From Candidatus Magasanikbacteria bacterium RIFCSPHIGHO2_01_FULL_41_23 (GTDB lineage Bacteria; Patescibacteriota; Patescibacteriia; Magasanikbacterales; UBA922), in assembly GCA_001782805.1 (NCBI GenBank), contig MFPT01000021.1:10546-74545 (forward strand): a stretch of 64,000 bases of DNA. Reading direction: 5' to 3'. Made by a program: the position numbers and the translations under genes. Positions 1 through 60,500 of this stretch are shown in pieces. How positions within the stretch are numbered: position 1 is the stretch's first letter; every line of letters begins with the position of its first letter. The notes under the pieces are model-generated. The model made no database searches, had not been told where the DNA came from, and saw only the letters and a list, made by a program, of their open reading frames with translations.

Positions 1-32
1 GGGTAGAATTTTACCAGTTAAACTATCGGCCC
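1..32 (-). tRNA. Partial tRNA gene (5' acceptor strand, D-arm and start of anticodon stem); the rest lies beyond the window start
   Basis: Reverse complement reads GGGCCGA-TA-GTTT-AACTGGTA-AAAT-T-CTACC-C, a tRNA 5' half. Anticodon-stem 5' strand CTACC and C32 are identical to the tRNA at 36090-36166. The flank at 33-110 is ~80% identical to the flank of that tRNA (36167-36250). Confidence 0.3.
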
Positions 33-192
33 ATAATCCACCATCTATAACCATAACACAAACAACCTTAAGAAAGTCTTAAATTTTAAAAGTTATTCAC
101 AAATTATCCCCAATATTTTGAAACATTTATAAAGAGCTGTTTTTTGTCTTCATCTGTGTTATAATAATTTCATAAAGAATTTACTGATTTAC

Positions 193-5022: not shown

Positions 5023-6276
5023 ATGGATACTACACCATTAAAGAATCTGATTGATTGGTATAAAAAATATTCTCTAAGACAGGGAGAGACTTTTATATTG
5101 GAATTTTTTGAAAAATCAAAAAATAAGTCTGACTCTCCAGTGAATAATTTAGAAAAAATTATTCGTAGTCTGGTTGAATTTGTCACTGAATCAAAAAAAA
5201 ATCCGGAAGAATTCTTTTTATTTCCAAATGACAAAATCATTATTAGTAGTCTTGCGACCGTTGACAAAGATTATATCCATTCTGTTGTGCCAGTTATGTG
5301 GTATGGTCTTGGTTTGCAAACCGGAGATTATGATTTGTGGGAACCGGAACAGATTATCAAAGAATGTGAAGAGGTTTTTTCCGGCGCGGTTGATAATGTT
5401 CCGGTTCTTATACGCAACATCCGCGAAGTCGGAAAGAACGAGGATGCTATAAATTTTTGCCAGAAATTTATTAACCAGTTTATTCTGCTTGATAAATGCA
5501 CAATAATCACAGAATTAAATTGGCATAATTCTTTGATAATAGCGATTGCGCTTAATACGGTATATGAACGACTATATCAGCTTTCCGAAGACGAGCAAAA
5601 AATTATTCTTCAACACAGTCTTTATGTCGCTTTGTGCGCGGGCATCAATGTGCAAACGAGTCTGCAGGCTGTCTTGTATCACACCAAAACTATTTTTAGT
5701 TTTATTGCCACGTATGAACGACTGACACAGATTTTAGAAGAAAGTAATGAAACGGTGATTCAAATTAATGAAAATTCTATTCAAACTCTGGGGAGTTTGT
5801 GGAATGATTATTGTGAAAAAAATAAAAATGATTGGTCGGATATAAAAAAATTAAAATTTTTTTCTGACAGTCTGACAACCAATGAATTTCAGAAAGAAAA
5901 AATATTTGCAGGTTTTAAGATACTCCTTGATCTTAAGACAGCGGTTTTGCAACAAAAAAATTACAGTGATGATTATAATGAATCCGAAGAGTTTCGCAAT
6001 GATGTCATTAAATTAATTTTTTGGTTTGGAATCGGTGACGCCGGTTACGATGATCTAAAAAAATATTTTCAACAGACAGAAAAAAAAGTTTCTATTACTG
6101 CTTTTGTAAAAAGGCTAGTTGAAATTATTGGTCTACAAGATATGGAACAAATTGAAAATGTACTTCTTTTTTCTGGATTACTTCGCGAATTAAACTGGAT
6201 GCCGGAAGATGACAACTTAATCAGTTTCCACGAATCCACCTCCCAATTCCATTGGAATCAAGAATTATTATCCTAA
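5023..6276 (+). CDS. Hypothetical protein, paralog of the next gene
   Basis: 417-aa ORF. Segment EQKIILQHSLYVALCAGINVQTSLQAVLY aligns with EQQFILQHYFYYAIIMGVPVQSWLNVAF of the downstream ORF. A second shared block is WFGIGDAGYDD vs WYGNDAQGNQY. No recognisable family. Confidence 0.6.
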   Translation: MDTTPLKNLIDWYKKYSLRQGETFILEFFEKSKNKSDSPVNNLEKIIRSLVEFVTESKKNPEEFFLFPNDKIIISSLATVDKDYIHSVVPVMWYGLGLQTGDYDLWEPEQIIKECEEVFSGAVDNVPVLIRNIREVGKNEDAINFCQKFINQFILLDKCTIITELNWHNSLIIAIALNTVYERLYQLSEDEQKIILQHSLYVALCAGINVQTSLQAVLYHTKTIFSFIATYERLTQILEESNETVIQINENSIQTLGSLWNDYCEKNKNDWSDIKKLKFFSDSLTTNEFQKEKIFAGFKILLDLKTAVLQQKNYSDDYNESEEFRNDVIKLIFWFGIGDAGYDDLKKYFQQTEKKVSITAFVKRLVEIIGLQDMEQIENVLLFSGLLRELNWMPEDDNLISFHESTSQFHWNQELLS

Positions 6277-7273: not shown

Positions 7274-7777
7274 ATGAATTACAATCAAAATAATTTTGCT
7301 TTTATTGACAGCCAAAATTTACATTTTGGAATTTTGGAACAAGGTTGGAAGATTGATTATCGAAAATTTCGTAATTATTTAAGGAATAAATACGATATTA
7401 CAAAAGTTTTTATGTTTATGGGGTATTTACCCTCAGAACAAGCTTTATATACATTTCTTAGACAATCAGGGTTTACGTTAATCTTCAAACATGTGTCTAA
7501 GTTACTTGACGGTTCGGTAAAAGGTAATTGCGACGGTGAGATGATTTTACAAGCTATGATAGAGTATCCGAATTATCACCAAGCTTTGCTCATTACAGGG
7601 GATGGGGATTTTGTATGTTTGATAAAATATTTACAAAAACAGAATAAATTGTTGCAAGTAATTGCTCCAACATTAGAAAATTGTTCTAAATTTATTCGTG
7701 AAGTTGCCGGTAAAAAATTATTGTTTTTTAACGATTTACAATCAAAATTGTCATATAAAGACAAAAAGACCCTATAA
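7274..7777 (+). CDS. NYN-domain (LabA-like / DUF88) putative RNase
   Basis: Motifs FIDSQNL near the N-terminus, GNCDGEMI and ITGDGDF match the PIN-like NYN domain acidic residues. AGGAGG RBS 6 nt upstream of the ATG. Confidence 0.65.
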   Translation: MNYNQNNFAFIDSQNLHFGILEQGWKIDYRKFRNYLRNKYDITKVFMFMGYLPSEQALYTFLRQSGFTLIFKHVSKLLDGSVKGNCDGEMILQAMIEYPNYHQALLITGDGDFVCLIKYLQKQNKLLQVIAPTLENCSKFIREVAGKKLLFFNDLQSKLSYKDKKTL

Positions 7778-7887
7778 AGACAAAACAGTATAGGGGCATT
7801 CTTGCTGGGAAGGACCATACAAAGACAAAACAGTGTACAGGATATTCCCTCATGATTACTTTCTAAAGTATACAACACTACAAATAG

Positions 7888-8922
7888 TTGTCAAGCCAAG
7901 TTATGCCCAATCAACCCACAATTCTCGTAAAAAAATCCGACGGAACGACAATCCGGATGACTCTTGACGAAGTCAAAAAAATGAAGGCGGAGAAAAAAGC
8001 AGATAATCCTTTGTTGCCACAAGAATTAGAGACAGCACCAGAAACAGTGATCAAAAAAGCTGTGGAAATGTTAAAAACTCCGGAATTGGAACCGGCACCA
8101 GTGGAATTTTTATTAAAAGCCAGCGCCGAGCCACATCTTTTGCATGAAGAAATAGAATCGCACGAAGTTACCAGACCGGAATTAGTGACCGCGGTTTCGT
8201 ACGATCGCACGGTTGACGCCGTGCTTAAAAATGCTCGCTTAACTCCGAGTCCGGAACTAATGCCGCGATTTCAGTCACTCATTATGTCGCTTATAAAAGG
8301 CGTGCGTACTGTGGCGCAAGTAATGGAATACGCGAGCGCGCCGCTTCTGCGCGGAGGTTTGGCACTTTCGATCGCCGAGGCAGAACGTCTTGCCACGGCT
8401 TTGAACACACAAACCGGTTTGCCCAATAACCGATCGATTATTATTCCCAAACCCATGACTGCGCCTGCCTCCACGCCCTCAAACATTCAGGGATCAGTCA
8501 AAAATAATCCAACTTCAAATCGTCCTCACAACACAGGCGCGGCTTTTGTCCAAATGCATGATGTGCAAGCGCCGCAGTCCGCGCCAAGCACAAGCAATAA
8601 AGCAGTCATGGGTCCTATAGAAGAAATGAAAATTTTTTCTCTCCTTGATTGGCGTCGTCTCGCGGCTACGCCGGATAAAGCCAAAGAAATAATTTTAAGT
8701 AAATTTTCCGGCTGGAAAGATGAATCATTTTTTTTGTATCGTGATACCAGATTGGCCTGGTTGGAATCGCCATTGGTGCGCGAATATCAAGAAAAAGTTA
8801 TCACTGCCATCAATCAAAGTACGCGTTTGTCTGATATGGCTTCCGGATTTGCGGTGAAAAAAACCCTGACACCGGCTGACATTGCCGCGCTCGTTGAAGT
8901 GAATAGGGTACTTGCGGTATAA
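7888..8922 (+). CDS. Hypothetical Pro/Ser/Ala-rich protein
   Basis: 344-aa ORF in the same orientation inside the T4SS-like cluster. No recognisable motifs. Confidence 0.5.
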   Translation: MSSQVMPNQPTILVKKSDGTTIRMTLDEVKKMKAEKKADNPLLPQELETAPETVIKKAVEMLKTPELEPAPVEFLLKASAEPHLLHEEIESHEVTRPELVTAVSYDRTVDAVLKNARLTPSPELMPRFQSLIMSLIKGVRTVAQVMEYASAPLLRGGLALSIAEAERLATALNTQTGLPNNRSIIIPKPMTAPASTPSNIQGSVKNNPTSNRPHNTGAAFVQMHDVQAPQSAPSTSNKAVMGPIEEMKIFSLLDWRRLAATPDKAKEIILSKFSGWKDESFFLYRDTRLAWLESPLVREYQEKVITAINQSTRLSDMASGFAVKKTLTPADIAALVEVNRVLAV

Positions 8923-10095: not shown

Positions 10096-11955
10096 ATGCC
10101 ATTTAAACCCATTGCCACCAATAAAAAAGGAATCAGTTCGGCAGCGCCGGACATTGAGAAAAAAAAACTGCAAAAAGAATTGATTACTTTGGAAGAAGAA
10201 CGGGTGTATCGCGAAGGCACGGTGGCCATTCGCGATTTGGTCGCGCCGTCCGCACTATCGGTTCAGTCCAATTTTGTGCAATTGGGCACGACTTTTTTGC
10301 GTACGATTTTTGTGATTACGTATCCGCGTTATATGTCAGTCGGCTGGAGTTCGCCGATTTTAAATTTAAATTTGACCATGGATTTGGCTATGTTTTTTTA
10401 TCCGGTCAATTCGGAAATTATTTTAAAACAGCTCAAGAAAAAAGTTGGCGCGCTGGAAGCGCAATTGTCCGGTGACGCGGAAAAAGGCGCGGCGCGTGAT
10501 CCGTTGCGCGAAACTGCTTTGCGCGATATTGAACAACTGCGCGATGATTTAACGCAAGGCGTGGAACATTTTTTTCAATTTGCTTTTTACGTTACGCTTT
10601 ACAGCCAAGACAAAAAAGAATTGGATAAAGTTACGGAAGACATTCAGAATATTTTTGGTTCCAAATTAATTTACAGCAAAAATGTTTTGTATCAGGCCGA
10701 ACAAGGTTTTACTTCAACGTTGCCGCTGGGGATTGATGAGTTGACGATTTCTTTTAACATGAATTCCTCGCCGATCGCGGCCTCGTTTCCGTTTATTTCC
10801 TCGGAATTAAGCAGTGATGATGGAATTTTGTATGGCATCAATCGCCATAATAACAGTTTAATTTTGTTTGATCGTTTTTCTTTGCAAAATGCCAATATGG
10901 TGGTTTTTGCCACTTCCGGAGCGGGAAAATCTTATGCTATTAAATTGGAAGTTTTGCGTAGTTTAATGATGGGAACTGACGTGATTGTGATTGATCCGGA
11001 AATGGAATATGAGCATTTGGCCGAGGCGGTTGGCGGAACTTATATCAGTATTTCTTTGGCTTCGGAAAGCAAAGTCAATCCGTTTGATTTGCCGCGTCCG
11101 GTTGGTCAGCAAATTTCCACCGAAGATATTATTCGCAGCGCAGTAATTACGATGAAAGGTTTGTTGCGGATTATGTTTGGCACACTGACGCCGCAGGAAG
11201 ATTCAATTTTGGATCGCGCGCTTTTGGAAACGTACGCGAAAAAAGACATTACAGCTACAGTTGATCTGACCACAGTCGAGCCGCCGATTATGCAGGATTT
11301 GCTGGATATTTTGGAAGGCATGACGGGCGCGGAAGTATTGGTTTTAAAATTGCGCAAATATACCGAAGGCACGTTTGCCGGATTATTCAATTCTCCGACC
11401 AATGTGAATGTGACCAATCAATTGGTTATTTTTAGCGTGCGTGATTTGGAAGATGAATTGCGGCCAATGGCGATTTATACGTTGGTGAATTATATTTGGA
11501 ATTTAGTTCGTTCCGAACAAAAACGGAGAATTTTGATTATTGATGAAGCGTGGTGGCTTATGAGTCACGAGGATTCGGCCAAATTCATTTACGCGCTCGT
11601 GAAGCGTTGTCGCAAATATTATTTGGGTGTGACGACCATTACCCAGGATGTGAATGATTTTTTACGTTCGCCATACGGACAGGCGATTGTAACCAATTCG
11701 GCTTTGCAACTTTTGCTCCGTCAATCACCCGCGGCCGTGGATATGATTCAACGCGTGTTTATGTTGACCGAAGGAGAAAAATATTTGCTTTTGGAAGGCG
11801 CGGTCGGTGAAGGCATATTTTTTGCCGGCAATAAACACGCGGCCATCAAAGTCGTGGCGTCTTATACCGAAGATCAACTCATCACGTCTGATCCCAAACA
11901 ATTATTGGAAATTGAAAAAGCCAAAAAAGAATTTGAAGAACAAATGGGAAAATAA
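10096..11955 (+). CDS. virB4: VirB4/TrbE/PrgJ-like T4SS ATPase, central and C-terminal ATPase domains
   Basis: Walker A VVFATSGAGKSYAIK and Walker B ILIIDEAWWLM. The architecture resembles VirB4/CagE/TraC. Together with the upstream ORF it gives ~848 aa, a typical VirB4 length. Confidence 0.75.
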   Translation: MPFKPIATNKKGISSAAPDIEKKKLQKELITLEEERVYREGTVAIRDLVAPSALSVQSNFVQLGTTFLRTIFVITYPRYMSVGWSSPILNLNLTMDLAMFFYPVNSEIILKQLKKKVGALEAQLSGDAEKGAARDPLRETALRDIEQLRDDLTQGVEHFFQFAFYVTLYSQDKKELDKVTEDIQNIFGSKLIYSKNVLYQAEQGFTSTLPLGIDELTISFNMNSSPIAASFPFISSELSSDDGILYGINRHNNSLILFDRFSLQNANMVVFATSGAGKSYAIKLEVLRSLMMGTDVIVIDPEMEYEHLAEAVGGTYISISLASESKVNPFDLPRPVGQQISTEDIIRSAVITMKGLLRIMFGTLTPQEDSILDRALLETYAKKDITATVDLTTVEPPIMQDLLDILEGMTGAEVLVLKLRKYTEGTFAGLFNSPTNVNVTNQLVIFSVRDLEDELRPMAIYTLVNYIWNLVRSEQKRRILIIDEAWWLMSHEDSAKFIYALVKRCRKYYLGVTTITQDVNDFLRSPYGQAIVTNSALQLLLRQSPAAVDMIQRVFMLTEGEKYLLLEGAVGEGIFFAGNKHAAIKVVASYTEDQLITSDPKQLLEIEKAKKEFEEQMGK

Positions 11956-11956
11956 T

Positions 11957-12150
11957 CCAATGCAACACCAAAACATCCACTATACCAATAAGCAAAATGG
12001 AGACGAATATACTTTTGCTGAAAGCTGAGTATATTGACTTGTTGAGAATGCATAATCCGTCAGACTATCAGTTGAACAAAAGGATATCGTTGAATTTTGC
12101 TTAAGACTTAGAATAAATAAAGTTTGATTAAGACTTAGAAAATGGAGTTT
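11957..12150 (+). repeat. Copy 1 of a ~200-nt dispersed intergenic repeat (second copy at 35643..35900)
   Basis: Near-identical blocks: AATGCAACACC..AATAAGCAAA.TGGAG.., GAAAGCTGAGTATA.TGACTTGTT.AGAATGCATAATCCGT.AGACTATCAGTTGAACAAAAGGATATCGT.GAATTTTG.TTAAGACTTAGAA..AATGGAGTTTG. There is an internal direct repeat TTAAGACTTAGAA. Confidence 0.7.
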
Positions 12151-12177
12151 GATTACGAGGGAATAAGATGCTATACT
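12149..12177 (+). promoter_or_regulatory. Putative sigma70-type promoter (TTGATT-17-TATACT) with the -10 only 8 nt from the ATG of the next gene (leaderless-like)
   Basis: Hexamers read directly from the sequence. Spacing 17 nt. ATG at 12186. Confidence 0.3.
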
Positions 12178-14244: not shown

Positions 14245-14378
14245 AAGGAAAAATTAAACATTACCAATGTAATCCTCAGTATCATATCACGAAAAAAAAT
14301 CTCCAGCAATGTGGTTTACCCTGAGCTTGTCGAAGGGAATTGTCCACATTTTTGGGGATAAATATCATTTTTCCATTA

Positions 14379-14873: not shown

Positions 14874-14930
14874 ATTTTTTATTTTTTTTGCTTGCTCTGA
14901 GCGATCCCGACATAGTCGGGAGAGTCGAAG

Positions 14931-15019
14931 GGCGGAGAGATAGAGATTCGAACTCTAGAGGCTCTTGCGAGCCCGGCAGTTTAGTAAACTGCTGCCTTAA
15001 ACCACTCGGCCATCTCTCC
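14931..15019 (-). tRNA. Class II (Ser-type) tRNA with atypical anticodon loop UUACUAA (apparent anticodon ACU); CCA not encoded
   Basis: GGAGAGA-U-GGCCGAGUGGUUUAAGGC-A-GCAGU-UUACUAA-ACUGC-long arm-UAGAG-UUCGAAU-CUCUA-UCUCUCC-G. The body closely parallels the adjacent tRNA-Ser(UGA). Its loop differs from the tRNA-Ser(GCU) loop only by A at position 34. Confidence 0.55.
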
Positions 15020-15094
15020 ATAAATTCTGATATTGTGGGCTTGCCCTGAGCGAGCGACTTGTGGTGAGCGGAGTCGAAACCAAGCGAGTCGAAG

Positions 15095-15183
15095 GGCGGA
15101 GAGAGTGAGATTCGAACTCACGGAGGACTTGCATCCTCAACAGTTTTCAAGACTGTCGCCTTAAACCACTCAGCCATCTCTCC
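15095..15183 (-). tRNA. tRNA-Ser (anticodon UGA), class II
   Basis: GGAGAGA-U-GGCUGAGUGGUUUAAGGC-G-ACAGU-CUUGAAA-ACUGU-long arm-GUGAG-UUCGAAU-CUCAC-UCUCUCC-G. Confidence 0.8.
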
Positions 15184-15282
15184 AGAACTTTATCCTATAA
15201 ACAGAAAAACTATAGCAAAATTAAGTATTTTTCGCAAGTGTATTGTGCCGTGATTTTTGCCATGATATACTCAAGTTGAACT

Positions 15283-19047: not shown

Positions 19048-19342
19048 ATTTGAATCAATGGAAAGGGGTGGCCACTAAGGCTATCCCCAGACAGAACTTG
19101 ACAAAAGTTCTGGGTTTTGGTATTGTTCTGCGTTACATTGTAATCTTGTGTCCACTATCTCGACTTAGTCGGGACGAGCGAGGATATAGGGTATGTGCGT
19201 GTTTCTTCCTTAAGTAGGATAGCAAATAAGTATTACCCTGTATCCACGACAAGCATGGAGGTGTGAAGTAGGGAAGAGCAGGCTCACGCTCGCCTTTACC
19301 TATGTCACACCTTCTTGGATACGGGTAGGTTTATCCTATATA

Positions 19343-33030: not shown

Positions 33031-34464
33031 ATGAATTCCATTCCGATCGCTTTAACCTACGATGATGTTTTAATTGTGCCGCGACGTTCCGGTCTTAATT
33101 CACGCAGTGAAGCCGTGACAACAACGCGGTTAACCAAGAAAATAAATTTGCATATTCCATTGGTCAGCGCGAATATGGACACGGTGACTGAATCGCAAAT
33201 GGCGATTGCGTTGGCGCGATTGGGCGGGATTGGAATTTTGCATCGCTTTATGACGATTGAAGAAAATATCGAAGAAGTAAAACGAGTTAAGCGCGCGCAA
33301 AATTTTGTGGTTCGCGATCCATACAGCATTGATCCGAATAAAACAATTGGTCAAGCCAAAGAATTTATTGCCAAATGCGGTGTAACGGGTTTGGTAGTGG
33401 CGAATGATGATGGACGTTTGCACGGGATTCTTTCGCGTCGAGATATGATGTTTGCGGAAAATGACCACGCACTTGTTTCGGAAATTATGACGCCGCGTGC
33501 CAAATTAATTGTGGGTGTTCCATCAACCACATTTGAAGAAGCCAAAAATATTTTTGCGCAAAATAAAATAGAAAAATTGCCGCTTGTGGATGAAGACAAT
33601 AAAATTATTGGTTTAATTACCAGTGATGATATTCGGTTGAGGATTGATTATCCATTGGCTAATACTGATGAGAAAGGCAATCTTTTGGTGGGCGCTTCAA
33701 TTGGCGTGAAAGGGGATTATATTGAGCGCGCGCAAGAATTAATTAAAGCCGGAGTGGATGTGCTGGTGATTGATATTGCGCACGGACACTCGGATTTAAT
33801 GTTTGACGCGATTAAAAATGTTCGCGCGGCTTGCACAGATGTGCAATTGATTGCAGGTAATATCGCGACAAGCGGAGCGGCGCAAGAATTATGTGAAGCC
33901 GGAGTTGATGGTTTAAAAGTGGGAGTGGGTCCGGGAACAATTTGCATTACTCGTTTGGTGACCGGATGTGGCGTGCCGCAATTATCCGCGGTGATGAATG
34001 TGGCCGCGACCGCACAAAAATATAATGTTCCGGTAATTGCGGACGGAGGAATTCAAAAATCCGGTGATATTGTAAAAGCGATTGGTGCGGGTGCGGATAC
34101 GGTTATGCTGGGCGGATCTTTGGCTGGAACACATGAAAGTCCCGGTCTGATAATTAATCGCGATGGCAAGAAATATAAAGTTTGCCGCGGTAGCGCCAGT
34201 TTTGCGATTGCTGAACGTAGGCAAAAAGTGGGGCAAGAAAAAAAGGAAATGAATGAAGTTACGCCAGAAGGCGTGGAAGCAGTTGTGCCGTATAAAGGGT
34301 ATTTGGCGGAAATTGTCGGTCAATTTATTGGTGGTTTAAAATCAGGGATGAGCTATACCAATTCGCGAACGATTGGTGAATTGCAAAAAAATTGTGATTT
34401 TGTGCGGATTACGAACGCGGGTTTGCGCGAAAGCGGGCCGCATGATTTGCAGGATGTGCGCTAG
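33031..34464 (+). CDS. guaB: Inosine-5'-monophosphate dehydrogenase (IMPDH) with CBS pair
   Basis: TIM-barrel IMPDH motifs IDIAHGHS and GVGPGTICITRLVTGCGVPQLSAV (catalytic Cys loop). Two CBS domains in the middle. Confidence 0.9.
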   Translation: MNSIPIALTYDDVLIVPRRSGLNSRSEAVTTTRLTKKINLHIPLVSANMDTVTESQMAIALARLGGIGILHRFMTIEENIEEVKRVKRAQNFVVRDPYSIDPNKTIGQAKEFIAKCGVTGLVVANDDGRLHGILSRRDMMFAENDHALVSEIMTPRAKLIVGVPSTTFEEAKNIFAQNKIEKLPLVDEDNKIIGLITSDDIRLRIDYPLANTDEKGNLLVGASIGVKGDYIERAQELIKAGVDVLVIDIAHGHSDLMFDAIKNVRAACTDVQLIAGNIATSGAAQELCEAGVDGLKVGVGPGTICITRLVTGCGVPQLSAVMNVAATAQKYNVPVIADGGIQKSGDIVKAIGAGADTVMLGGSLAGTHESPGLIINRDGKKYKVCRGSASFAIAERRQKVGQEKKEMNEVTPEGVEAVVPYKGYLAEIVGQFIGGLKSGMSYTNSRTIGELQKNCDFVRITNAGLRESGPHDLQDVR

Positions 34465-34527
34465 AACTTGAATAAACTAGAAGCTGAATAACTATTTAAG
34501 ACTAAAAACAATTAATTTTTTTGGTGA

Positions 34528-34561
34528 GGGGGCTCCGACTTCATGTCGGAGCCCCCTTTTT
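34528..34561 (+). terminator. Strong rho-independent terminator after guaB (12-bp GC stem plus T5)
   Basis: GGGGGCTCCGAC-TTCAT-GTCGGAGCCCCC followed by TTTTT. Confidence 0.7.
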
Positions 34562-34580
34562 GTTCTTCCTCCTTTCTTCG

Positions 34581-34820
34581 CTAGGCGAAGTTCCCGTAGT
34601 AGCTCATGACGTGACCGAAGCCTCCGCGTGGCGAAGCGCGTCGGTGATGCTCGTTGTCGTCAGATCCCCCCTTCTTCTTAGGGGGATCCACGATCGGCGA
34701 CCGGTTTGTGGACAGGCTCCGCGGCGGACGGTAGGGGGTTCCATCGGCCGAGGGGATGTCCTCGGCACGTCGGAGGGGGTTTCCCTTGTCATCCAGCGTC
34801 GCGGCACGAAATCTTTCCAT
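34581..34820 (-). CDS. Hypothetical small basic protein encoded in the GC-rich island
   Basis: 80-aa ORF on the minus strand (MERFRAATLDDKGNPLRR...KKKGGSDDNEHHRRASPRGGFGHVMSYYGNFA). GC content far above the genome background. The coding call is uncertain. Confidence 0.25.
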   Translation of the reverse strand: MERFRAATLDDKGNPLRRAEDIPSADGTPYRPPRSLSTNRSPIVDPPKKKGGSDDNEHHRRASPRGGFGHVMSYYGNFA

Positions 34821-35033
34821 GGTCAATGATCCTTGTGTCCCGACTTCGTCGGGACGGTTTGAGATGAAGAAGATTATAAATAATTGTGATGCTTTTGTCA
34901 ATAATTTTAGGCTAAAAAATTTTAAAAAAATGTTCGGTTTGACTTTTTTGCTTTTTTATTTTATTCTTTGAACAGATTGTTTTAATTTGGCTGAACAATG
35001 AGGGGTTGTTTGGTCAACTAAGGGGTTTTTTCA

Positions 35034-35231
35034 ATGAAGGTTTTGATGGTCACCCTGACTACCAAGAACAGCCGTGGAGAGGACATCCATTTCTCGATCT
35101 CGAAGGAGGGCGCGCGGGAGGCCGGAATCCTCCCTGATTCTCGATCCTGGGATCGTGCCCAGGGTGTCTCGGCGGGAAACCGCCAGTACATGAAGCGCCT
35201 CGTTCGTCGACTCGACGAGATCGGATCGTAA
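35034..35231 (+). CDS. Hypothetical small protein in the second GC-rich segment
   Basis: 65-aa ORF (MKVLMVTLTTKNSRGEDIHF...). GC-rich. A terminator follows at 35378-35405. The coding call is uncertain. Confidence 0.25.
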   Translation: MKVLMVTLTTKNSRGEDIHFSISKEGAREAGILPDSRSWDRAQGVSAGNRQYMKRLVRRLDEIGS

Positions 35232-35377
35232 GCGATCCGAACCAACGCCGTTGATTCGCCGCCACTCGCGGATCCGGCACGATCGTTCTTCATCAAGTAG
35301 CCCACCAGTTTCTGTCCCACCTTTGTTCCTTCCTCGGGCTCAGACTTCACGTCCGAGCCCTCCCACCAAAATTAAAA

Positions 35378-35405
35378 CTCTCCGAGATTGTCGGAGGGTT
35401 TTTTT
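35378..35405 (+). terminator. Rho-independent terminator
   Basis: CTCTCCGA-GATTG-TCGGAGGG hairpin followed by TTTTTTT. Confidence 0.55.
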
Positions 35406-35642
35406 ATGACAATAAATACATCAAGGAAATCAATTTAAATCGAATCAATTTAAGTCGACTTAAAATAAATCAAATCAACATGAATTTCAGTAATAGGTAA
35501 TTTTCTTTTCAGTAAAACTCGCTATTCTTCTCCTCTCCTCGTCTCTATCCTTATTGATATATTAAATCTACTTTAACCAAGTAAGCGGAAAGAAAGCTCG
35601 TACACATTACTAAAAAGAAAATTACCTACTACTGAAATTACC

Positions 35643-35900
35643 CCAATGCAACACCGAAAAATTTAATATACCTAATAAGCAAACTGGAGTGAGATCTTTT
35701 TCTCGATGCCCGAGCCTGTTTACCCTGAGCTTGTCGAAGGGTCGAGGGTCGAGAAAAACGGTCTCACGAAGTTTGCTTAAGACTTAGAAAGCTGAGTATA
35801 ATGACTTGTTAAGAATGCATAATCCGTTAGACTATCAGTTGAACAAAAGGATATCGTCGAATTTTGTTTAAGACTTAGAAAATGGAGTTTGCTTATGAGC
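35643..35900 (+). repeat. Copy 2 of the ~200-nt dispersed repeat (see 11957..12150), carrying a ~65-nt internal insertion of the short GC-rich repeat family
   Basis: Blocks align with copy 1 at ~85-90% identity. Extra segment ..GCCCGAGCCTGTTTACCCTGAGCTTGTCGAAGGGTCGAGGGTCGAG.. is inserted between the first two blocks. Confidence 0.7.
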
Positions 35901-36089
35901 AAACAAAGCATGAATTTTGATTACAATTTGGCATATAAAAAATATAAAAGTCCAGTGTTTACCGGACTTTTATATGACACGTAGAAGTTTTGCCAATGAA
36001 GCACTGGCTCACTACCCTTTAATGTAAATTATATCAAGATTTATTATTTTGTCAAATAAAAAACACAACGAGAAGTTGTGATTTTTAGG

Positions 36090-36166
36090 TGGTGGACCTG
36101 ACGGGAATCGAACCCGTTCTACTACGTGTCAAGGGTAGTGTGCTCAACCAGATACACCACAGGCCC
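36090..36166 (-). tRNA. tRNA with short variable arm, CCA encoded, anticodon loop CUUGACA (apparent anticodon UGA); isotype uncertain
   Basis: GGGCCUG-UG-GUGU-AUCUGGUUGA-GCAC-A-CUACC-CUUGACA-CGUAG-UAGA-ACGGG-UUCGAUU-CCCGU-CAGGUCC-A-CCA. The stem has a C31.C39 mismatch, position 37 is C, and there is one acceptor-stem G.U pair. Confidence 0.55.
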
Positions 36167-57545: not shown

Positions 57546-60500
57546 ATGACTGATTTTGTCCATCTTCATGTCCACTCGCATTATTCGCTCTTGAATGGCT
57601 TAACCAAAATAAAAGCCTTGGTTAAGGCGGCGAAAGCGCGGGGATTTTCCGCTTTAGCATTGACTGATTATGGATCAATGTATGGCGCTATTGAATTTTA
57701 TCAAGCGTGTTTGGCCGAAGGAATTAAACCGATTATTGGATTTGAAGCATACATTGCTCCACGAAGTAGACTTGATAAAGATCCGGCGCATGATTCGACA
57801 TTGTATCATTTAATATTACTCGCGGAAAATTATAATGGCTATAAAAATTTAATGAAGCTGTCGTCGTTTGGCCATTTGGAAGGATTTTTTAATGGGAAAC
57901 CACGCATTGATAAAGAATTGTTGCGGAAATATCATGAAAATATAATTGTTTTGTCCGGACCGATTGAAGGCGAAATTCCCACATTAATAAAAAATGGTGA
58001 GATTGCCAAAGCCAAAGCAGTGGCGCGGGAATATCAAGAAATGTTCAGTTCGACTTCGCTCACCGCGAGTGGATCGGATTATTTTTATTTGGAATTGGAA
58101 GATCATCCGGCAATCTCCGGCCAAATTGAAGTGAATACTAAATTAATTGAATTGGGAAAAGAATTGGGAATTCCGTTGGTGGTAACGCGTGATGTACATT
58201 ATTTAAATCCGGATGATGATGAGGCGCAAGATATTTTGCGTTGTATTGCCGAAGGTTGGCGCGTGGATCAGCCGAATAGAATTGATTATCGCGGCGTTGA
58301 TCGGTCGTTCGCGACTGGCGATGATATTGCCGCGCGTTTTCGGCATGTTCCGGAAGCAATTGCCAATACGATAAAAATTGCGGAGCGTGTGAACATTCAA
58401 ATAGAATTAAACAAATGGCATTTTGCGCCAGTGGAATTACCTCCGGGCAAAACTGCGGACGATGTTTTGGCCGAAGAAGCACATAATCGCGTTACGATTT
58501 ATTTTAAAGAAAAAACGGCTGAACTTACTGAACGTTTGAATTATGAATTGGAAATTATTAAAACAAAAAAATATTCGCCGTATTTTTTGTGCGTGGCGGA
58601 TTTTGTGCGTTATGCCAAAGATCATGGGATTGTGGAATCAACGCGTGGTTCAGCCGCTGGTTCATTGGTGTCGTATGTTATGGGAATTACGACTGTGGAT
58701 CCGATGCGATTTAATTTGCCGTTTGAACGATTTTTAAATCCGTTTCGTCCCAGTCCACCGGATGTGGATACGGATTTTGCCGATGATCGTCGCGATGAAA
58801 TGATTGAATATGTCACGAAAAAATATGGCGCGGATAAAGTGGCGCAAATTATTACGTTTGGAACTATGGCCGCGCGCGCCAGTGTGCGCGATGTTGGTCG
58901 TGCTTTGGGATTCGCGTATTCTTTTTGCGATCAAGTGGCCAAATTAATTCCGCAAGGCGCGCAAGGTTTTCCCATGACGATTGGTCGCGCACTGACGGAA
59001 GAACCGGATTTGAAAAAATTATATGAACAAAACGCGGATGTAAAACGTTTGTTGGATTTGGCGCGAAAAGTTGAAGGCTGTGCGCGGCATACTTCCATTC
59101 ATGCGGCCGGAGTGGTGATTGCGCCGACCGCGCTGATGGATTTTTCGCCCGTGCAATATGAAACCGGTGGCACGCGGATTACCACGCAATATGAAATGAA
59201 ATCCGTGGAAGCGGCCGGAGTTTTAAAAAATGATTTTTTGGGAATTCGCAATTTGGCGATTTTGGGAAACGCGGTGGAATTCGTGAAAAAAACCACGGGT
59301 CAAGAAATTGATATTTATAATTTACCGTTGGACGATGCCAAAGTTTATGAAATGTTGGCGCGCGGAGAAACGATGGGTGTTTTTCAGCTTGGTGGTTCGG
59401 GTATGACGCGCTGGCTAAAAGAACTGAAACCAAACCGGATTGAAGATATTATGGCCATGGTGGCGCTGTATCGTCCTGGACCAATGGAATCTATTCCCGA
59501 ATATATTCGCCGCAAATATAATCCTGAGGCGGTAAAATTTTTTGATTCGCGGTTGGAAAAAATTCTCGGCGCTTCGTATGGATTGTTGGTATATCAAGAC
59601 GATGTGATGTTGACTGCGATCGCACTCGCTGGTTATGATTGGATGGAAGCGGATAAGTTTCGCAAAGCCATGGGCAAAAAAATTCCCGAAGAAATGGCCA
59701 AACAAAAAGAACAATTTTATAAAGGTTGTCAGGAAATAGGCAAAGTAAAAAAAGATATTGTTGATGAAATTTGGCATGCGATTGAACCGTTTGCCGCGTA
59801 TGGGTTTAATAAATGTTTGGTAGGAGAGACTGAAATTGTGGACGCGGCAACCGGAGCAATAAGAACCATCAAGGAAATGTACGAGCAAAAATCGAGGATG
59901 TCGGTATTAAGTTTGTCGGGCTATAAGAAATTAATTAAAAGAAAAATAATTGATATCTATAAAAACGGGAAGAAGCCAGTGTGGGAAATTACTATTCGCA
60001 GTGGCCGGAAAATTACTGCCACGGGCAATCATCCCTTTTTAAAATTTGGCGGCTGGTTCAATTTAGAAAAATTATGTGTCGGTGATTTGATCGCCGTACC
60101 AAGAAAAATTGACTATCGGCCGAGTGCTGATTTAGATTCTAAAAAATTAAAAGTATTGGGCTATTTGTTATCAGAAGGAAATCTCTGTCATCCTTACGGC
60201 GTTTATTTTTATTCTTCAGTCGAGGTAGAAATCCAAGATTTTATTACCGCTGTAAAATCATTTTCTAATTCTAATGTTACGATTAATAGAAGTAAAAGCG
60301 CAGCAGCTGTCTATGTGGGGCAAATCAATCCCAAATTTAGGAACAATTTAATGTTGTGGCTTAAAGAGCTGGGTTTGTATAACAAAAAAGCCACGGAAAA
60401 ATTTATTCCCGAATTTATTTTCAAATTATCACCGGAAAAAATCGCAGTGTTGGTTGGATCGATGTGGCAGGGCGATGGCTGTGTACATGATGACAAAAAT

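Follow-up and report, generated by a model that had tools for sequence, protein, structure and literature searches.

The question raised by the spacer between guaB and radA in Candidatus Magasanikbacteria bacterium RIFCSPHIGHO2_01_FULL_41_23, a member of the candidate phyla radiation (CPR) from Rifle groundwater, is what an island of about 0.8 kb, rich in guanine plus cytosine (GC) and bounded by related hairpins, is doing at the point where these two genes converge. All positions refer to the window, the whole 64-kb stretch of this genome that was analysed. The island is most likely an islet of orphan open reading frames (ORFans), neither a known RNA nor a recognisable mobile element. A more specific reading, to which we give about an even chance, is that of a foreign mini-island derived from high-GC DNA, carrying two divergently expressed small orphan genes and inserted in the guaB terminator, within a spacer that varies between lineages. 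On this account ~0.8 kb of DNA that had evolved in a high-GC background would have entered the palindromic terminator at the convergent guaB/radA junction, and two divergent mini-transcription units would fire from back-to-back sigma-70 promoters in its AT-rich middle.

Composition sets the island apart from its surroundings. Against a window mean GC of 0.409 (40.9%), with a standard deviation of 0.061 between 150-nt windows, the maximum of 0.673 is reached in the 150-nt window starting at 34620, inside the island; by segment, GC is 60.5% for positions 34560–34860, 27.2% for 34861–35033, and 58.7% for 35034–35365. This recomputed sliding-window profile is far from uniform and bears out the two GC-rich segments around an AT-rich spacer described in the initial annotation of the locus, although the host GC given there as ~35–40% has to be corrected to ~41%. 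The two segments are the most GC-rich stretches of the window, and the only other stretches of at least 56% GC are 760–1496 and 8245–8487, which lie within long ORFs, 33864–34014, which lies within guaB, and 59068–59226. Since the 1.8-kb island region is 100% identical in independent assemblies from JGI, NCBI and ENA (at least seven assemblies in all), with long flanks on both sides, the island is not an assembly artefact. Every population copy of the locus is occupied and identical, and no empty site was seen among them.

The predicted expression signals and reading frames of the island are the following.

34581 to 34820, minus strand: p79, an ORF of 79 amino acids (aa), isoelectric point (pI) 9.9, ending YYGNFA; its start codon, ATG at 34820, is the first AUG in the predicted transcript, with AAGGA 9 nt upstream
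34838 to 34856, minus strand: H2, an 8-bp hairpin, GTCCCGACTTCGTCGGGAC, at the 5' end of the predicted minus-strand transcript
34861 to 35033: AT-rich spacer, 27% GC, holding two back-to-back divergent promoters
34901 to 34873, minus strand: promoter TTGACA-17-TATAAT, matching the sigma-70 consensus at 12/12 positions, with a predicted start near 34866
34939 to 34967, plus strand: promoter-like TTGACT-17-TATTCT, 9/12, for the plus-strand unit
35034 to 35231, plus strand: p65, an ORF of 65 aa, pI 10.1, with AAGGGG 8 nt upstream
35380 to 35405, plus strand: canonical intrinsic terminator, CTCCGAGATTGTCGGAGGG followed by seven T, at the end of the plus-strand unit

Read in order, these elements would make up two units. 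The minus-strand unit would run from the promoter at 34901–34873 through hairpin H2, the Shine-Dalgarno (SD)-like AAGGA and the AUG at 34820 into the 79-aa ORF, to end at H1, the left bounding hairpin; the plus-strand unit would run from the promoter at 34939–34967 through AAGGGG and the 65-aa ORF into a 170-nt 3' region that contains H3, the right bounding hairpin, and on to the terminator at 35380–35405. Sites matching the sigma-70 consensus at 12/12 positions occur just twice in the 64 kb (128 kb counting both strands), both times in the guaB–radA spacer.

Several properties suggest that p79 and p65 are both translated. GC by codon position is.62/.54/.73 in p79 (p=0.049) and.58/.45/.71 in p65 (p=0.011), in both cases with third positions (GC3) above first and first above second. 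SD-like motifs stand 8–9 nt before both frames, and among long host ORFs such motifs precede 2 of 33, at the background rate (7.6%; examples of host starts are 193, 5023, 30902, and 33031). As a side observation, the ORFs of GC-rich islands here and in relatives all carry an SD motif, and the host genes are largely without one. Modelled by AlphaFold2 from its single sequence, p65 reaches a mean predicted local distance difference test score (pLDDT) of 80.3, as a β-hairpin with three helices. Of the small ORFs originally reported, the 65-aa protein on the plus strand and the basic minus-strand protein ending YYGNFA were both recovered, the latter with 79 rather than 80 aa when counted from its ATG; their description as unrecognised also stands, profile, sequence and structure searches having returned no match. 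Four to six alternative island ORFs found no match in Pfam, PHROGs, NCBIfam or PADLOC, and a PDB sequence search of the island ORFs was equally negative. The sole weak profile match, to YmgM (E=0.029), lies in an N-terminal extension that does not begin at ATG and was ignored, and three nominal HMMER matches for p65 were artefacts, namely weak matches summed over tandem-repeat proteins. At the level of a guess, p79 and p65 could have come from a phage- or plasmid-like source as an accessory module whose proteins bind nucleic acids or act in regulation.

How such a module would have entered the chromosome is suggested by the structure of its ends.

34528 to 34557, plus strand: H1, GGGGGCTCCGAC-TTCAT-GTCGGAGCCCCC, a perfect 12-bp stem with a 5-nt loop, followed by a T run
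35336 to 35361, plus strand: H3, GGGCTCAGAC-TTCAC-GTCCGAGCCC, a degenerate copy of the H1 core with one A.C mismatch in the stem and no T run after it
34519 to 34554: left arm of an imperfect inverted repeat of 36 nt (81% complementary); the outermost 11 nt of this arm are TTTTGGTGAGG
35336 to 35371: right arm of the same inverted repeat, with the outer flank TCCCACCAAAA

Because its T run is found on the plus strand only, H1 is the intrinsic terminator of guaB. All three hairpins placed in the island by the initial annotation are present where it had located them, and its view of H1 as the guaB terminator and of H3 as a near-copy was upheld; of the related hairpins it had listed elsewhere, the one at 14905 was confirmed (the pattern lies at 14907), whereas that at 19161 is merely a looser relative, CTCGACTTAGTCGGG. 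The pattern CCGAC-N3-6-GTCGG occurs three times in the window against 0.07 expected, twice in the island and once at 14907. The H1 core (34530–34554) is repeated directly at 35336–35360 with 22/25 identical positions (88%), a pattern for which 0.00 matches are expected by chance, and the loops TTCAT and TTCAC agree in direct orientation. Just outside the cores, the left flank TTTTGGTGAGG complements the right flank TCCCACCAAAA (2 matches of the flank pattern vs 0.04 expected). Of the 36-nt inverted repeat, 25 nt are a self-complementary hairpin and match better as a direct repeat. A further repeat links 34552–34571 with 35316–35335 (75% identical). From these relations it is purely inferred that H1 and H3 are two copies of one 25-nt terminator core, produced by insertion into a longer ancestral palindrome: a palindrome of ~21 bp, like the single hairpins of the relatives L011 and L096, would have taken in 781 nt, its central 25 nt being duplicated in the process. 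Such a duplication would be att-like, unlike the target duplication of transposases, and no classical transposase-type target-site duplication was found at the island ends. Beyond the two ends, no other copy of the bounding repeats occurs in the 64-kb window, and the end motif has 0 matches in scans of viral and metagenome contigs, the metagenome collection evidently also missing this genome itself.

The same junction was compared in relatives that keep the order recG–guaB with radA converging on it, and the spacer proved to vary widely in length.

L096: spacer of 35 nt, guaB identity 75%
L011: spacer of 103 nt, guaB identity 74%
L100: spacer of 655 nt, guaB identity 75%
L094/L095: spacer of 965 nt, guaB identity 74%
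L092/L093: spacer of 1236 nt, guaB identity 76%
This genome: spacer of 1893 nt

The two shortest spacers, of L096 and L011, consist essentially of one long bidirectional terminator hairpin and lack the island, which is not universally conserved downstream of guaB. Those of L100, L094 and L092 each contain a GC-rich island, reaching up to 75% GC in genomes of 38–50% GC. As in the units described here, a promoter close to consensus is followed by a 5' hairpin, a strong SD motif, a small ORF (of 92, 95 or 68 aa), a 3' region with structure, and a terminator; GC3 of these ORFs is 0.87, 0.86 and 0.69, and values of 0.69–0.87 are the signature of genes evolved at high GC. Searches with nhmmer and tblastx detected no similarity of these islands to the one described here or to one another, and in Rfam and Pfam they match no family. 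What recurs after guaB in three relatives is hence an analogous, non-homologous GC-rich cassette, and not the same island. The L094 island is flanked by related hairpin repeats of 34 nt (82%) and 24 nt (96%), and the repeats around the islands of L100 and L092 are weak and rich in AT. Given the variable spacers and the GC-rich cassettes of these relatives, the guaB–radA junction is a hot spot of gain and loss that repeatedly holds promoter-bearing orphan cassettes of high GC.

Some further features of these islands were noted on their own account. The 3' regions of L092 (~7705–7835), L094 (~8040–8140) and L100 (~6155–6260) are each closed by a long-range stem, CCUGCG(CGC)...(GCG)CGCAGG, after which comes a C-rich tail, either CCCCAAUC or CCCCACAC; their interiors differ and the stem is absent from the island described here. 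It may be a shared 3' element or a set of short inverted repeats. Promoter homology among the four islands was considered and dropped, the alignment being unconvincing, and a 'UCCCACC' tail common to the island and L094 is at chance level for a 10-mer. GC-rich islands 17–30 points above their host recur in related and unrelated CPR-like contigs (L104 1–800 and 2150–3200, L013 5251–5841, L098 1971–3231, L092 321–911), and most encode proteins without a Pfam family.

A foreign insertion, as originally proposed for the island, is thus supported by its unique composition, its absence from L096 and L011, the coding-type GC pattern, and flanks that look like a duplicated target hairpin. It shares with the ORFan islets of variable intergenic hot spots an atypical composition, presence or absence at a fixed junction, orphan ORFs and promoters of its own, and differs from them in being GC-richer than its host, only 0.8 kb long, devoid of a mobility gene and bounded by a duplicated terminator hairpin. 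Most acquired DNA is AT-richer than its host. Against the combined reading of a foreign islet with two expressed genes stand the following observations. The p-values for codon periodicity are marginal, the third codon positions of p65 are shared with an antisense ORF of 110 aa, and ORFs of 65–110 codons are expected by chance at 60% GC, several overlapping ones being present here. Neither protein has a homologue among 5.8 billion clusters, nor has p65 one by exhaustive HMMER search of 1.84 billion representatives; p79 is predicted to be disordered (pLDDT 59.6), and p65 has no recognisable fold, Foldseek comparison with PDB and BFVD giving no match at E<0.1. Searches of plasmids, phages and viral contigs (blastn, tblastn, and viral-contig scans) revealed no donor. 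Short hairpins crowd the region, the fold z-scores being −3 to −5 for either strand, and the stop codons of both ORFs sit in hairpin loops. With neither a recombinase gene nor a second copy, the insertion mechanism itself has to be inferred.

Part of this evidence leads to an unlikely alternative, in which the island consists of two structured noncoding RNA (ncRNA) genes of ~340 nt (minus strand) and ~430 nt (plus strand), its GC content being the product of selection on RNA structure and its ORFs accidental. Long GC-rich intergenic stretches in AT-rich genomes are a familiar place to look for ncRNAs (PMC8723152, PMC11109978), and the island, a long and hairpin-dense GC-rich intergenic region in such a genome, resembles the structured RNAs discovered there. 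Its GC-rich stretches coincide with the predicted transcribed regions while the promoters are AT-rich and host-like, the 12/12 promoter looks like those at highly expressed RNA genes, perfect short hairpins are numerous and include GNRA-type loops, and the minus strand of segment 1 (34560–34860) has a fold z-score of −4.99; the position of both stop codons within hairpin loops and the predicted disorder of p79 also fit. However, the z-scores reflect many short DNA palindromes and do not tell the strands apart, and those of segment 2 (35034–35365), alike on both strands, may have no other meaning. At the gathering threshold, Rfam found tRNAs alone in the whole window; at E<=10 its best island match within 34400–36100 reached 26.7 bits against a threshold of 43 and was just the terminator hairpin, and a search for transfer-messenger RNA found none. 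No known RNA family is therefore assigned, and the structured RNA locus that had been suggested for the island finds no support from Rfam at any threshold or from comparative data. In contrast to the ncRNAs of GC-rich intergenic regions, the island lacks a family match and, having no homologue, covariation data, and shows a three-base GC periodicity in its ORF frames together with SD-like motifs, seldom used in this genome, at the proper spacing before the first usable AUGs. A p65 fold at pLDDT 80 also argues for protein, as do the GC3 values of 0.86–0.87 in relatives' islands, which are not seen in RNA genes.

It is quite unlikely that the island is nothing but decaying scrap of foreign high-GC DNA, taken up for instance by natural competence, whose ORFs and promoters have no role. 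In favour of scrap, the island has no homologue, no function and no conservation beyond one population, H3 is degenerate, and the Magasanikbacteria locus L013 illustrates how GC-rich gene fragments lodge in such a place, its island holding a PurH-like (IMP cyclohydrolase) MGS-like fragment adjoining guaB. Yet a 12/12 promoter is very unlikely to arise by chance, given two such sites in 128 kb, both in the guaB–radA spacer, and the succession of promoter, 5' hairpin, SD motif, first AUG, ORF and hairpin or terminator is an orderly one, found twice and divergently. Against it stand also the identity of the sequence across samples and the predicted folding of p65.

Distinctly improbable, and of greater consequence if true, is the possibility that the island is a mobilisable cassette without an integrase of its own, its unit of 806 bp (one 25-nt core added to 781 nt) recombining at the hairpin site. 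It would then belong to an undescribed class, to be given the same low probability, of GC-rich ORFan cassettes with their own promoters that enter CPR chromosomes at terminator palindromes and duplicate the hairpin core, by a recombination modelled on integron cassettes at attC, on integrative mobile elements exploiting Xer recombinases (IMEX) at dif, or on cis-mobilisable elements flanked by att sites (CIMEs). The 25-nt direct repeat stands exactly at both ends and the outer flanks rebuild one long palindrome, the repeat of 34552–34571 at 35316–35335 would, were the insert circular, lie on either side of the core, the absence of an internal recombinase and the ORFan cargo are as in cassettes and IMEXs, and different cassettes occupy the same spacer in relatives, in L094 also with flanking hairpin repeats. 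With integron cassettes in particular, the island shares a unit of 0.5–1 kb, mostly ORFan cargo, no recombinase inside, imperfect palindromes as boundaries and the presence of different cassettes at one site in relatives. An attC site, however, has R''/L''...L'/R' boxes (RYYYAAC ... GTTRRRY) and spans at least ~57 nt, and inspection of H1 and H3 revealed none, the palindrome being 25–36 nt long without a GTTRRRY or RYYYAAC core; the two genes are divergent and have their own promoters, no integrase appears in the Pfam annotations of called genes within ±5 kb, and neither intI nor attI lies nearby. A good and a degenerate copy of a short palindromic site as flanks, and no recombinase within, recall IMEXs and CIMEs, but the site here, a GC-rich perfect hairpin with a T run, looks like a terminator more than like the 28-bp dif-like site of XerC/XerD, and a position at the replication terminus is not evident, the GC skew dipping only locally (at 35–40 kb); the idea of a terminus or dif site at this locus was set aside on the same ground. 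The island occurs as a single copy in 64 kb, its end motif is missing from the viral and metagenome scans (the latter missing this genome too), it is invariant in all samples with no empty site, and the repeats flanking L100 and L092 are AT-rich and weak, all of which tell against this reading.

Other known systems were also compared. Miniature inverted-repeat transposable elements (MITEs) and the palindrome-associated transposable elements (PATEs) derived from IS200/IS605 are similar in non-autonomous size and end hairpins, and unlike the island in that it is present in one copy, shows no transposase-type target duplication or TnpA/TnpB, and is unrepeated in viral and metagenome collections; profile searches of the island ORFs found no transposase domain. 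Class C group II introns insert after intrinsic terminators, and the island too is a GC-rich structured insert directly 3' of a terminator hairpin, but Rfam finds no domain V/VI or other intron signature and the internal divergent promoters are incompatible with an intron. A tRNA-associated island is not indicated, with no direct repeat of the downstream tRNA of at least 10 nt in 34465–36089 and no integrase within ±5 kb, nor is a type II toxin–antitoxin or defence system, with no match in Pfam, NCBIfam, PHROGs or PADLOC and genes that are divergent and not co-transcribed. The suggestion that the element is mobile is not upheld, for it exists in one copy in the window and in none in the viral and metagenome scans, with no transposase or integrase and no classical target-site duplication. 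Diversity-generating retroelements (template and variable repeat) or an internal duplication were set aside since the island has no similarity elsewhere in the window, and an enrichment in GATC, as in oriC or a Dam cluster, was dropped at p=0.02 in segment 2 alone after dinucleotide correction. An assembly chimera, with the reads of a high-GC organism joined into a CPR contig, is scarcely credible, for although GC shifts abruptly at hairpins, which are classic sites of mis-joining, the identity of 1.8 kb with long flanks across independent assemblies and the AT-rich, host-like promoters in mid-island oppose it.

The remainder of the guaB–radA spacer contains what is a more surprising object than the island, a tRNA paired with an antisense RNA. 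The downstream tRNA mentioned by the initial annotation, called tRNA-Ser(tga) by ARAGORN (36166–36090, minus strand), is not a normal tRNA-Ser: it is class I and 77 nt long, its variable loop is short, it carries G3.U70, A73 and a CCA encoded in the gene, and its anticodon loop, CUUGA(C/U)A, has a 31–39 mismatch and a pyrimidine at 37. G3:U70 is the alanine identity element, sufficient for recognition by alanyl-tRNA synthetase (PMC11415595). Together, G3.U70, A73 and the encoded CCA are the alanine identity set. A canonical long-arm tRNA-Ser(UGA) is encoded at 15094–15184, and the UCA codons of guaB fall in invariant serine columns, so that no codon is reassigned; the G3:U70 tRNA possibly serves in Ala mis-decoding, as a nuclease-resistant decoy, or in a non-ribosomal role. 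A paralogue lies just left of the window (L102 5840–5766, minus strand, its 5' part corresponding to window positions 1–33), compensatory pair changes separating the two tRNAs (75–77 nt) in three stems (acceptor, D and T), and the same family is found in four metagenome contigs, L103–L106.

Adjoining this tRNA on the same strand is a small-RNA gene of ~80 nt (~35935–36021, minus strand) with a terminator at its end, whose promoter at 36055–36028 is the second perfect sigma-70 consensus promoter of the 64 kb. Further copies in L102 (~5610–5690, minus strand), L104 (~1706–1792), L106 and L103 also have perfect or near-perfect promoters. The order of elements is promoter, AAGGGUAG, a covarying hairpin, (U)CUACNUNUCA and terminator, and the RNA contains AGGGUA. 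In reverse complement, the segment CUACNUNUCA exactly matches the anticodon loop and 3' stem of the tRNA that it accompanies; two conserved segments of the small RNA complement both strands of the partner's anticodon arm, anticodon included, and a UCA codon mimic is carried. Three tRNA variants at positions 37/39 are each exactly matched by the partner RNA. In the four metagenome contigs, which belong to other organisms, the RNA gene is upstream of the tRNA, whereas here it is downstream, and the two GC-rich islands of L104 flank such a pair. No counterpart of the pair was found in Rfam or in the literature searched. The small RNA may act against the tRNA, as a regulator or antitoxin, or may be a leader that senses tRNA.

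Several repeats complete the description of the spacer. An AT-rich intergenic repeat with tandem GTTTAAGACTTAGAAA motifs (35634–35689 and 35787–35924) matches 11948–12156 at 82–86% identity over 56 and 140 nt, and is thus common to the guaB–radA spacer and the spacer after a 619-aa ORF. A long imperfect hairpin at 35676–35780 carries at its apex a 22-nt indel (35716–35737) that is missing from L004 and L010 and is the sole population variation seen in the whole guaB–radA spacer; the 24-mer 35718–35741 is 100% identical to 14314–14337. A 33-nt inverted repeat (35483–35515 and 35607–35639, 94% complementary) surrounds 91 nt of AT-rich DNA in a MITE-like arrangement. Elsewhere in the window, a cluster of three Ser tRNAs includes one with anticodon ACT (14930–15020, minus strand), and a hairpin, CCCGACATAGTCGGG, lies between two of its genes. 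An unmodified A34 is unusual in tRNA.

If the island were to prove a member of a cassette class, this would explain why unrelated GC-rich cassettes occupy the guaB/radA terminator of different Magasanikbacteria. Should it be, as favoured here, a foreign islet with two expressed orphan genes, it would provide a small and clean case of gene gain in an ultra-small CPR genome, in which orphan genes of high GC with a strong promoter of their own lodge in a terminator at a recurrent hot spot of gain and loss. Such a case would bear on how reduced, probably DNA-scavenging symbionts acquire novelty, and its importance would be greater if the duplication of the hairpin reflects a dedicated insertion mechanism.

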